Shown here: positions 1 through 59,000 of the stretch, one piece after another | How positions within the stretch are numbered: position 1 is the first letter of the stretch | Layout: every line of letters starts with the position of its first letter | Assembly: GCA_036785375.1 (NCBI GenBank) | Contig: JAWMAR010000351.1 | Span: 868,001-932,000 of the forward strand | Source: Leucoraja ocellata | Lineage: Eukaryota | Reading direction: 5' to 3' | Length of the DNA stretch: 64,000 nt | Notes under the pieces: model-generated | Seen by the model: the letters and a program-made list of their open reading frames with translations, nothing else | Database searches by the model: none | Told to the model about the DNA's origin: nothing | Translations under genes and position numbers: made by a program

Positions 1-991
1 CGAGTTTGTTAAATTAAAATGCCTCTACTTTAAAAAGTTAATGTTGAAGAGAAATAATTTCCTAAACAGGGTCAATGAAGAAAATGCATCATAAACTAAG
101 AGTTAGCTCATTCATGAGCAGCATCCAGAAGTATTATTCAGTACAAAGGATAAGTATACAAATCTGCCCCCAAGATGCTTTGAACCTGGCAATAAATTAG
201 CCAAGAGACTTATTTAGCAAAGATGGCAGTTATGAAGAGACCAGCTATGATCTAATTGATCTCATCTCTATCGGCTTATTTTAGCCAACAGCACAATCAT
301 ATTGTCTAAAGTTTCCATCTCCAATACCACGCGAAAATTGAACTATAGACCTTTTCCCAAAAATATCATCTATATAAATTCATTGAATACCGCACATTTG
401 AAAAGTCAAAAATAGTTATAACCAAGTTCATTCTTGTGTTTACAAAAGCAGACTGCTAAAGTTAAAACGATTTTAGTTAAAAAATGCAGAACTAGAAATG
501 GACAGTCCAGAAACAAGCCCAAAACTCCATTTAGACAACTGATCCCAGGCTGCAGTTTTGAACAAAGTTCCAAATCATTATTTGCAAACACTTCCCACTT
601 TTCCTCCTGAACAGCATAGCTACATTTTCCTACTTTGCTCCAGTTCTGGATTCCAAATTGAATAGTTTCTGTATTTACCCCAAGTCATTCTAATCATCTA
701 CACAAAACCATCTTAGTGAACTTGAGTTTCAAAAGTTGTTTGGTCCAGATTAGGAACCTTTCATAGAAAATATTGTTTTACAATAACATTATCAATTGCT
801 TACATGCAATTTCCCCCTCCCCCATGGAAGTTTGTTCATTTGCTACATTTCTTTTTGCCAGTTTGAATTTTCAAAATTGTAATGCCATGTGGCATATTGG
901 AGAGTTTTATTCAGCAAGCTTAGCATATTATTGGTTTAGAAATCCCATAATGTGGAGGTGTTGATATTCAAAGAGAAACCATGTTTGTAGG

Positions 992-1183
992 CGTTTAAGA
1001 AGGAACTGCAGATGCTGGAAAATCAAAGGTACACAAAAGCAGGTGCAGCAGCATCTATGGAGCGAAGGAGATAGGTAACGTTTCAGGCCGAAACCAAAGG
1101 TTTCGGCCCGAAACGTTGCCCATCTCCTTCGCTCCATAGATGCTGCTGCACCCGCTGAGATTCTCCAGCATTTTTGTGTTTGT
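992..1183. mobile_element. Fold-back Penelope-derived mini-element
   Basis: Inverted arms around ...gtttcaggccgaaac/gtttcggcccgaaacgtt...; 14-bp TSD ACCATGTTTGTAGG at 978-991 and 1184-1197. Confidence 0.8.
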
Positions 1184-56000: not shown

Positions 56001-59000
56001 TCACCACTTGTACAAACATCATGCACTCGATCACGGTGAACTGTGAAATCAGTTTCAAATGCTTCATGTTTTTTCAACAATCCCTTGGAGAACGGAGAGA
56101 AATAAAATTAAAAGCAAGTCTACAATAATTAGATACAGCACTGGAAATAGACAGTATAAAGTAGAGAGAAAACAAACTGCAGAGGCTGGAGTCTTGAACA
56201 AAAGTGCTGAAGGAACTCAGCGGGTCAGGCAGCATCTATTGAGAGAATGGCCAGATGACGTTTCTGTCTGAAGAAGGGTCCCGACCCAAAGCGGTGCCTG
56301 TTACTGTCCTCCACTAATGTTGCCTGACCTGATGAGTTCCTCCACCACTTTGTTTTTTACAGCTTGACAGGTGATGGGTGTTAAGTGCCAGGGATCCTCT
56401 GGGTGCAGGAGATGGGAAAGTTAGCACCATACAGATAAATAAACATTTCAGATTCAGCATTGTGCCTTGCTTATCAGAACAATTAACTGACAATATGATA
56501 GAGGTTTACCGTAACTTGCATCAGATGCTATGCAAATATTAACAAATGGGTTAAAATGGCAAATTACAAGACACTGACCTGTACAGCAGCAAGTGTATCT
56601 CCATAATCCTCGCTTGCCACCAAGTTCAACTTCTCATTGATCCATGCCTCCTCTTCCTCAACATTTGCCACAAACTGCTGGTATTCCAAGGATTCTTCCA
56701 GACGTTGTCCTCTGCAACAAAAACAGTTTGACTTATTTGTGTTTATAAAAACAATACACCAGTTCCATGCTCTCAGTATCACTTTCATAAAATACAAATT
56801 TTATTGATCCTTATCTGCATGGAAAAATTAGGAAACATCTGACTAGATTTTGAGAAAGGAACAGGGAGAATAAAAAATAACTTTGCCATCGATGGGAAAG
56901 CACAATACATTTTCTCAGTTAAAAATAGAGCATAAATGTAAATTCTTTATTGAATATTCCTACGATTGAGTTGTTTATATGTTTTGCTTTTGTTTCAACA
57001 CATCTCTCATTTGTCTTGATGGTTCGATTTTTTAATAAAGCACTAATGATCTTCAATCATAAAATATTTAATTAGTTCCTTGTGTATAAACTAGTTAATT
57101 TGTTTTTCTTCCCATGATCCTATCTAAATGCTTCAATTTCTGCTGCAGAGAAGTGATGGCATTTCAAATTTGTAAGAAGGAACTGCAGATGCCAGTTTAA
57201 TCTGAAGACAGGCATAAAAAGCCGGCAGCATCTCTGGAGAGAAGAAACGGGTGACATTTCGGGTGAGACCCTTCTTCAGACTAGTCAGGGGAAAGGGAAT
57301 GGAGAGATAGAGACAATGATGTTGAGAGATAAAGAACAATGAATGAAAGATATGCAAAAGAGTAACAATTATATATACAGGCTATTTTTAGCTGTTTGTT
57401 GGATGAAAACAAGAAGCTGGTGTGACTTGGGTGAGGGAGGGATGGAGAGAGGGGGAATGCCGGGGTTACTTAGAAGTTAGAGAAATCAATTAGCATACCA
57501 CTGAACTGAAAGCTGCCCAAGCAAAATATGAGATGCTGTTCCTCCAATTTGCATTTAGCCTCACTCTGACAATGGAGACATTTGAAATGACATTTCAAAT
57601 ATTTGATAGCTGTAAGTCACTGTGATTACAAATGGTATGATAAAATAGGTCCTTTAAGACCCAGGTCTGAAACAAGAATTTGTTCATTCTCTCCACAGAT
57701 ATCAAATATGTTTGCTGCATTTTAGACTTTTTGCACCCTCCATACACCAACCATGTCTGCAATAGCTAATAAAAACATAACTCAACAAAAACACAGCCCT
57801 CAAAAGCCATGATGGACAAAGCAAACATACCGAGCAGCTGCAAATTCCTTCAACTCCTTCCAGTGTGCCACAAACTGTGACAGTCTCTGCTGGATTTCAT
57901 CCTTTCCAATCGTATTATCATCCGACAACTTATTTCCCGTTTCCAGTACAGACTATTGCAAAAGAACAACAACCATGAGTATCCTAACTAGCATTAATGT
58001 TAACAATGAATAGACGTCTCCCAGGGTAGGGGAAATCAAGAATTAGAGGGTATACATTTAAGGAGAGAGGGTAAAGATTTAAAAGGAATCTGAGAGGCAA
58101 TCTTTTCATACAGAGGGTAGTTTTAGTATCACTAAAATGTCAGGAATGGGATGTTTAATTCTGTGGTAAATCAACAACTGCACCCTTCATTTTGTTCAAA
58201 AATCAAACATGGCACAGATTCCCATCAAAGTAGCCGGCACCCATGTAATTCTCTATTGGGGTGCCAGGACTGGCCAGCAAATGTAAATTAAAGAGAAACT
58301 GCTTCAGAGGGTCAATAACTCCGACATAAGTGTTTAAAAGATGCACTGAAGGACCAGTTTCTGTGTTGTAGTTTTATGTATATATATTGTGTATTTTTCC
58401 AAAATTGGCTAACAAGATCGTGGACGGAGATTCAATAGTTAACCTTCGGAAAGGGAAAGGGAAAATACTCAATATAGATACACAAAACAGTACAACACAG
58501 AAGCAAGCCCTATAACACATAATATCCAGGTTGTGCCAAGTTAAACTAATCCACTCTGCCTGCACACGATCCGTATCCTTGCATATACATGCACCCATTT
58601 AAAAGCCTCTTAAATGCCATTTTCATGGTGAATAACAGGGGAGTGAGATTCATGAATTGCTCTTTCTCTTCAATCCCATTCTGTAATTTGACCCACAGTT
58701 TACAAAGACATTCATCCAAGACTTGTCAATTGTTAATTAGGTACAATGATATACCAGTATATACATTTATTGACAAACCAGGTCCCTTGAAAAGTTGTCT
58801 TAGGCCATCATTGCTAGGTCAATGTTTTATTCAAACCTGGATTGCTGGGTCATGTGCAGCCAGCTCTGCTTCCAGGCGTTTATGCTTCTTCTTCAAGTTC
58901 TGTACTCCAGTCAGATCCCGTCCGTAATCTTCAGAACTCACAAGTAATTTCTTCTCCCTGTCCAAATATAAAGAAAATGCATCATCCTGCATCACTTTTA

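Follow-up and report, generated by a model that had tools for sequence, protein, structure and literature searches.

Are short inserts that carry the core of a hammerhead ribozyme mobile units in their own right, or the debris of a larger element? The question is raised by a 64,000-nucleotide stretch of DNA from Leucoraja ocellata (contig JAWMAR010000351.1, positions 868,001 to 932,000 of the forward strand; "the window" below), over which a family of such inserts with a common tail is dispersed. The original prediction saw in them a spreading lineage of non-autonomous ribozyme units. We instead consider it likely that the copies are dead, 5'-truncated inserts of several subfamilies of an autonomous Penelope-like element (PLE) of the Neptune type, and that their common part is its pseudo-long terminal repeat (pseudo-LTR). 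This part consists of a minimal hammerhead and about 65-100 nt downstream of it; its 3' ends fall into two classes, separated by about 35 nt.

Extent and anatomy of the family

An nhmmer profile built from 16 arms gave 22 matches in the window at E<=1, and 19 of these reached E<=1e-4. They make up 14 loci with 18 arms, against a single match (E 0.68) in the reversed window. Loci 4 and 10 were outside the training set and were found independently. The shared-tail family is therefore real, and the predicted dozen or so inserts at about one per 5 kb become 14 loci at one per 4.6 kb. Three weak profile matches (53093-53138, 57662-57700 and 19399-19429) were not counted as loci; the first two (E 0.009 and 0.33) may be very old copies, and both begin within the hammerhead region of the model.

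The copies are 82-699 bp long and share their 3' ends, while the 5' ends vary, forming a ladder of truncations. Seven of 16 scored arms end +63 to +70 from the ribozyme cut site, and nine carry a further tail of about 35 nt ("tailed" below). Four loci (1, 9, 11 and 13) are head-to-head palindromes.

Locus 1, 992-1186: palindrome with a tailed arm (992-1095, minus strand) and a tail-less arm (1097-1186, plus strand), both beginning in stem II, without the C3-A9 box of the hammerhead; target duplication of 14 bp (978-991 and 1184-1197).
Locus 2, 1438-1770, plus strand: short, tailed, with a deletion in C3-A9, split by an unrelated repeat at about 1479-1669; target duplication at 1425-1437 and 1771-1783.
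Locus 3, 8278-8370, minus strand: short, tail-less, beginning 2 nt before C3; all 12 core nucleotides present, helix III palindrome disrupted by CpG decay; target duplication at 8267-8277 and 8371-8381.
Locus 4, 10965-11056, plus strand: old degenerate copy in a SET intron, hammerhead unrecognisable (profile E 1e-8).
Locus 5, 15723-15804, minus strand: short, tail-less, beginning in the 3' strand of stem II.
Locus 6, 17812-17917, minus strand: short, tailed, C3-A9 damaged; target duplication at 17804-17811 and 17918-17925.
Locus 7, about 18936-19250, plus strand (the start may be near 18790): third long copy, with a pyrimidine-rich 3' untranslated region (UTR), then a hammerhead with G8C and G12A, then the tail.
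Locus 8, 19544-19637, minus strand: short, tail-less, beginning at stem I, with 11 of 12 core nucleotides (U16.1 lost); target duplication at 19531-19543 and 19636-19648.
Locus 9, 30548-30738: palindrome with a tailed minus-strand arm and a tail-less plus-strand arm, without C3-A9; target duplication of 13-14 bp (30534-30547 and 30737-30750).
Locus 10, 31816-31911, plus strand: old degenerate copy (profile E 1e-4).
Locus 11, 42218-42442: palindrome, tail restricted to the minus-strand arm; two full-span yet damaged hammerheads, with C3 at 42342 (minus) and 42352 (plus).
Locus 12, about 53684-54382, minus strand: longest copy, with a GIY-YIG remnant, a 288-nt spacer, a hammerhead (C3 at 53805, G12A) and the tail.
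Locus 13, 56170-56361: palindrome whose tailed arm begins at GAAA and whose tail-less arm begins 2 nt before C3.
Locus 14, about 57170-57578, minus strand: GIY-YIG C-terminus (57470-57578), 190-nt spacer, hammerhead (57250-57282) with all 12 core nucleotides, and tail; target duplication at 57160-57169 and 57591-57600, with an inverted copy of the target at 57579-57589.

Target duplications thus flank 7 of the 14 loci. Five are exact (14, 14, 11, 10 and 8 bp at loci 1, 9, 3, 14 and 6), and those of loci 2 and 8 are 13 bp long with two mismatches. Random controls gave exact repeats of at least 10 bp in 3 of 300 cases and of at least 8 bp in 43 of 300. These duplications, the third long copy, the palindromes and the two classes of 3' end were all absent from the original prediction. 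Truncation, an inverted 5' copy and a one-sided tail of 30-40 nt are standard traits of PLEs (PMC8557442, PMC3846280, PMC8969392); the window copies show all of them, the tail being optional and the target duplication variable, as in endonuclease-bearing (EN+) PLEs.

The link to Penelope-like elements

As predicted, two of the long copies (loci 12 and 14) join the hammerhead to remnants of a GIY-YIG endonuclease, with edges at about 53684-54382 and 57170-57578. The remnant of locus 12 (about 54097-54382) reaches from the first GIY strand to the C-terminus and is frameshifted, with internal stops and deletions; that of locus 14 matches the last 35 residues of GIY-YIG proteins in tblastn. Protein matches to the remnants numbered 6 in a first search and 83 (E<=0.001) in a second, and by tblastn the remnants match 82 and 78 of 88 query proteins. 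A word-index protein search with a 60-aa remnant gave no match, and Pfam did not detect GIY-YIG in three remnants; among the relatives the Pfam signal is weak, and part of the long ones carry PF01541. The match of the remnants of loci 12 and 14 to GIY-YIG proteins is as expected of EN+ PLEs, whose C-terminal endonuclease has two cysteines between GIY and YIG (CCHH type).

No remnant of a reverse transcriptase (RT) was found in the window. RT is present in the same open reading frame (ORF) in the relatives P0051, P0092-P0145 and L001-L003. P0051, the closest RT-bearing relative, has motifs that we take to be those of the RT, thumb, cysteine linker and endonuclease. It retrieved 54 RT plus GIY-YIG proteins of at least 729 aa, 44 of which have both the linker and the GIY patterns. 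The CX2-5CxxC linker is present in the closest relatives (P0051, P0026, P0019), and the window copies end short of it. A cysteine linker between RT and endonuclease is described as the mark of Neptune or Nematis elements (PMC8557442).

Further evidence comes from L001-L003, three intact PLEs with long ORFs in a bacterial metagenome-assembled genome of GTDB, where they are apparently contamination from a host; no match came up when bacterial and archaeal genomes were scanned for stray copies with a DNA motif. Each has a homologous hammerhead 98 nt after the stop codon and a TATA box 39 nt before C3. This hammerhead has compensatory stems (stem I GCT/AGC, stem II GGGC/GCTC), the same extra A and GAAACGTC, and U4C; apart from U4C its core is that of the Acropora Neptune element in Fig. 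S3 of PMC4209133. On the linker of the relatives and this match to the published Neptune row we base the putative assignment to the Neptune type. A Penelope-like origin, as originally suggested, is upheld by the remnants and by a homologous hammerhead behind an intact PLE ORF. The search for an intact RT plus GIY-YIG parent succeeded only in part: L001-L003 are related, and none of the window lineage was found.

Some observations on the relatives should be added. A resemblance between the end of the tail and the 3' end of L003 was not significant (357 of 2000 shuffles scored as high). At 4739-4781 L001 has a second, different minimal hammerhead with a 6-bp stem II, followed by TA repeats; it is apparently the solo end of another PLE family. 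Four relatives (P0012, P0048, P0062 and P0089) are gene models that fuse a host gene (a G protein-coupled receptor, NYAP, RecQ5 and LAMP2) to this endonuclease end, and these are probably mis-predicted exons from intronic copies.

State of the hammerhead core

The majority sequence reads as stem I GGT/ACC (3 bp), CTGAAGA, an extra A, stem II GGGT/ACCC (4 bp with a 4-nt loop), GAAA, CG and TC; helix III is the palindrome ACGT, and position 17 is C or T. It has every feature of the minimal type I hammerhead of PLEs (CUGANGA, the extra nucleotide, a G10.1-C11.1 stem II, GAAA, NUH and a short helix I), and it agrees with the consensus published for PLEs, down to the nucleotide that sits between 9 and 10.1 (PMC4209133). 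To this extent the prediction of such a hammerhead with an ACGT helix III is borne out.

It had also been claimed that many copies keep this core, and here the individual copies disagree. Only 8 of the 18 arms span C3-H17, two (loci 3 and 14) keep all 12 required positions, and the full consensus is matched by none. C3-A9 is incomplete or absent in 10 arms, and all five arms of the least diverged, youngest group lack it altogether. The predicted string with CG has no exact match, and in relaxed form it has two (8342-8368 and 57254-57279; chance mean 0.00). Both arms with a complete core carry CpG decay in helix III: the predicted self-duplex energies are +3.4 and +2.6 kcal/mol (loci 3 and 14), compared with -1.7 for intact ACGU.

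The window is CpG-depleted, vertebrate-type DNA (observed/expected CpG 0.41). Among 16 arms (4 and 10 were too degenerate, and two junction columns were skipped), CpG transitions make up 14 of 24 core substitutions, including G12A in six. CpG decay thus accounts for most differences within the core, as proposed; it does not explain the 10 arms that lack part or all of C3-A9.

Outside CpG, mismatches are rarer in the core (7/117) than in the downstream sequence (127/729; Fisher p=0.001, with arms that are not independent). A downstream block around GATGCTG has 25/264, and the core is not significantly better conserved than this block (p=0.32). The expectation that the core is better kept than its flanks therefore stands for the downstream sequence as a whole and fails for the block, which points to selection, in the parents, both on the core and on another element downstream of it. 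RNAalifold on 11 arms found only a 7-bp downstream stem, in the GATGCTG block, without two-sided changes; the block may be a protein-binding site.

When isolated, the 34-nt cores showed no folding advantage over shuffles (z -0.7 to +0.5). An alignment of six window arms and L003 has 82.5% of cells paired and a covariation score of 0.286, which 3 of 500 shuffles equalled, and slid controls were lower; the two-sided changes come mainly from L003, and these seven rows give modest covariation support for the hammerhead stems. An Rfam scan of the window gave no hammerhead family at E<=10, its matches being microRNA models on palindromes and microsatellites, and all 10 matches of a covariance model at E<1e-4 fall at known loci, so that it added no hammerhead-only copy.

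One may ask whether the motif only resembles a hammerhead by chance or is part of a different class of repeats (a tRNA-derived short interspersed element (SINE), a miniature inverted-repeat transposable element (MITE) or a CR1 tail), given the silence of Rfam, the cores that fold like shuffles and palindromes that resemble MITEs. Both are refuted by the GIY-YIG remnants, by the hammerhead of L001-L003, with compensatory pairs behind an intact PLE ORF, and by the match to the published Neptune motif. Further, no tRNA gene was called in the window, the target duplications vary from 8 to 14 bp and the palindrome arms are unequal, and we give this explanation almost no weight. Judged from sequence conservation, the hammerhead was selected for in the parents, probably as a dimeric, protein-assisted ribozyme. 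The genomic copies appear to decay neutrally, and nearly all would be catalytically dead.

Where the copies begin

Each of the 13 scoreable short arms has its start between -6 and +21 from C3, and 12 of these ends are bounded by a target duplication or a palindrome centre. The long copies begin near -197 or further, at about -300 and at -577. Counted by locus, a single window of 27 nt takes in the 5' ends of 9 of 12 (four post-hoc nulls give P=8e-5 to 2e-3). The cut site lies at +27, and none of the 16 scored arms starts at or after it; all retain at least 6 nt upstream. When 63-nt post-cleavage fragments were planted, 40/40, 36/40 and 10/40 were recovered at 10, 20 and 30% added divergence. 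This distribution of 5' ends indicates that the templates were uncleaved or re-ligated, and that something at the hammerhead ended synthesis.

A published model (PMC4209133) would have the short copies reverse-transcribed from RNA cleaved by the ribozyme, with or without circularisation, the hammerhead itself fixing their ends. All short copies do end near the ribozyme, and a re-ligated circle would restore an identical sequence. Against this, not one scored arm begins at the cut site, and hammerhead mutations are reported to leave insertion in vitro unchanged (PMC11167929); we regard the model as highly unlikely for these copies.

Biochemical work on a PLE describes an RT-endonuclease that nicks both strands and extends them, prefers uncleaved RNA and starts at two internal RNA sites downstream of the hammerhead, to which the tail is traced (PMC11167929). 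With such an enzyme, cDNA synthesis here would mostly end within or just before the hammerhead, either as the template has its 5' end there (transcripts starting in the 5' pseudo-LTR) or as a complex of ribozyme and protein blocks the RT. A lone stub would result where one nick is primed and a palindrome, tailed on one arm, where both are; the long copies would come from read-through templates.

The distance from a TATA box to the start of transcription follows a spacing rule. By this rule the TATA box of L001-L003 is in keeping with transcription starting just before stem I, which has little support in the window copies. A fuller scheme would have RT begin 65-100 nt behind the hammerhead, close to the 5' end of the RNA, on uncleaved RNA and from both nicks of one target, and stop at such a start, some stubs being re-transcribed as a ribozyme-headed SINE. 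Taken as a whole this scheme is doubtful. If true, the stubs would keep a start site, a ribozyme and a protein-binding stem, and the genome would hold on the order of 10^5 products of PLE reactions in vivo. In D. virilis Penelope the start is placed well upstream, across an intron, if the numbering is comparable to the hammerhead position (PMC2377424).

Formation of the palindromes

Each of the four palindromes has exactly one tailed arm, and the centres differ at all four loci. At loci 1, 11 and 13 the tail-less arm extends further 5' than the tailed one, so neither arm is a plain copy of the other. This asymmetry leads us to favour, if not strongly, priming from both nicks on separate templates. 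Together, 5' starts that always lie upstream of the cut and one tailed arm per palindrome suggest uncleaved templates primed from both nicks. An arm difference common to palindromes 1 and 9, considered as evidence of two templates, was not significant (P=0.15-0.29).

The published reading of such structures is fold-back, in which one cDNA primes itself (PMC3846280); here later central deletions would have to make the arms unequal. An intrinsic 7-bp inverted repeat, situated between loop II and GAAA, forms the centre of locus 9, and the alternative loop II/GAAA-box hairpin is the predicted minimum-energy fold of a truncated arm (the locus 1 stretch matching the locus 9 centre). Further, the arms of loci 1, 9 and 11 each fall in the same sequence group. 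The extra central bases of loci 1, 11 and 13 belong to the tail-less arm, however, and each tailed arm would need to have lost its end later. Fold-back is thus a serious contender, if the less probable of the two.

Two side observations concern these hairpins. The youngest subfamily has a loop II complementary to the GAAA box (1097-1120 and 30648-30670), and both young palindromes are joined there. At the 5' junction of locus 14 (57579-57600) an inverted copy precedes the target duplication, forming a 10-bp hairpin with a 1-nt loop, and the inferred empty site contains a 12-bp palindrome, which suggests fold-back at the target.

Direct-repeat pseudo-LTRs were not seen, as no head-to-tail pair occurs among the 14 loci; they are expected only of near-full-length inserts, and the window has none.

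By-products or non-autonomous units

Several points weigh against dead inserts of an autonomous element made in the way described. The sample is one window with 14 loci, and the copy edges were read by hand. An intact parent ORF of the window lineage was neither found elsewhere nor present in the window, and even the best long proteins share no more than 45-49% identity with the closest relative. Six of the 13 short arms begin at -6 to -2, a pile-up equally expected of a defined non-autonomous unit. The asymmetry of the palindromes could stem from later deletions at an unstable centre, and locus 9 fits a simple fold-back at its intrinsic hairpin. Regarding the transcript start, loci 12 and 14 have no TATA box ahead of the hammerhead, and only locus 2 has an initiator-like TCAGT, with a start at -5.

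The pile-up at -6 to -2 is one argument for SINE-like ribozyme units, that is, stubs starting just before stem I that are self-transcribed and re-mobilised in trans by PLE protein. The density of one locus per 4.6 kb is high, a rotifer pseudo-LTR sequence sufficed for mobilisation in trans (PMC3846280), and non-autonomous retrozymes derived from PLEs exist (bioRxiv 10.64898/2026.07.22.740005). The subfamilies speak against it. Loci 1, 5 and 9 form a young group, 5-13% apart by nearest neighbours and tree, and the remaining groups are 2/3/6/8/14 and, more loosely, 11/12 and 7/13 (one of 15 inner branches is strongly supported). Each of these latter three contains one long copy plus short ones, with 8 and 14, 11 and 12, and 7 and 13 as near neighbours, mostly with weak support. 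Loci 7 and 12 are 68% identical over 275 columns of their 3' UTR; loci 12 and 14 cannot be aligned between stop codon and hammerhead, which implies more than one parent lineage.

Further, the 5' ends vary inside each subfamily, from -6 to +21 and out to -577, instead of keeping the fixed boundaries, independent of long copies, of a SINE or MITE (in a small sample). C3-A9 is absent from 5/5 arms of the youngest group, an intact core is missing in 16/18 arms, and none of the 14 loci is a tandem array of the unit. The definition of retrozymes requires tandem repeats in which two or more intact hammerheads follow each other, and the preprint describing these elements sampled one chondrichthyan genome (bioRxiv 10.64898/2026.07.22.740005); nothing of this form is seen here. 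Variable 5' ends, mixed groups, loss of C3-A9 and the lack of tandem arrays all speak for truncated by-products and against retrozymes or a SINE, and the proposed lineage of ribozyme units is not sustained. We think it unlikely as an account of the family; re-mobilisation of the stubs starting at -6 to -2 is possible.

Host genes and other repeats

The window holds an IER-family gene at 4833-5708 (minus), exons at about 9270-16300 (minus) that we take to be SET, WDR34 at 17261-35049 (plus) and spectrin-repeat exons from about 38700 to the window end (minus). This order (4833-64000; IER-family gene, SET, WDR34, spectrin alpha) is presumably that of human 9q34. These gene spans contain loci 4-14, with locus 4 falling between two of the mapped SET exons; loci 1-3 lie outside coding spans. 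The best-kept hammerhead (57250-57282, minus) is in sense orientation within a spectrin intron, and an antisense bias of single intronic copies was not seen in this small sample. An assembly gap of 200 N is found at 6760-6959.

Other repeats are present as well. A second dispersed family with RT-like remnants (1479-1669, 21486-21896, 22785-23529, 41930-42070), presumably the 3' end of a CR1-type long interspersed element, interrupts locus 2, so that copy was inserted later than locus 2. A third, SINE-like repeat, with no tRNA gene called, is found at 25076-25260, 37370-37424, 43070-43097, 48727-48754 and 60854-60889. The element at 43964-45204 has 116-bp terminal inverted repeats (93%) and a transposase-like frame (44254-44607); we assume it to be Tc1/mariner.

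Comparison with known elements

PLE ends with minimal hammerheads are already known from many animals, and single truncated and opposite-strand copies have been described as truncated PLEs (PMC4209133). The present family extends the list to an apparent cartilaginous fish, at an unusually high density. We found no paper on this family in cartilaginous fish, in a search that left out most subscription papers and the repeat databases (e.g. Repbase), which may catalogue it; with the same limit for subscription papers, none was found on PLE 5' ends clustering at the hammerhead. How the inverted PLE end forms and what the hammerhead does are stated as open questions in PMC8557442. With thousands of short target-duplicated inserts in one genome, junction counts could separate the fold-back, two-nick and cleaved-template models.

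The closest likeness is to Neptune-clade PLEs (Cervera and De la Pena 2014, PMC4209133), where Acropora digitifera (Fig. S3) has a type I minimal hammerhead in the pseudo-LTR with a 3-bp helix I, the extra nucleotide between 9 and 10.1, G10.1-C11.1, a 4-bp helix II with a 4-nt loop and a palindromic ACGU helix III. There too most copies are single and truncated or form opposite-strand pairs. Stem I is GGT/ACC here and GCT/AGC in Acropora. The table and alignment of that paper list no cartilaginous fish, and, taking the window as typical, the copies here are far denser than in coelacanth and Xenopus, for which 4,000-9,000 motifs per genome are given.

Poseidon PAc of Anolis (Frangieh et al. 2024, PMC11167929) is similar in its two RT start sites downstream of the hammerhead, its optional tail, its uncleaved RNA template and the nicking and extension of both strands. 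It belongs to a different clade, and its ORF starts at stem II, where no conserved start codon is found here; the mapping described in that work is of 3' ends, not 5' stops. Non-LTR retrozymes (PMC7229834; bioRxiv 10.64898/2026.07.22.740005) are likewise short, non-coding and PLE-related, with a type I hammerhead. They form head-to-tail tandem arrays of intact ribozymes, whereas the window has dispersed singles and head-to-head pairs, mostly intronic and mostly with broken cores.

Finally, the Penelope elements of Drosophila virilis and Adineta vaga (PMC2377424, PMC3846280) share the inverted 5' pseudo-LTR, a palindrome at the junction, a tail on one arm, target duplications of 8-10 bp and solo pseudo-LTRs. 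Unlike in these elements, an insert here often consists of nothing but a pair of inverted pseudo-LTR ends that meet inside the hammerhead and together measure about 190-225 bp.

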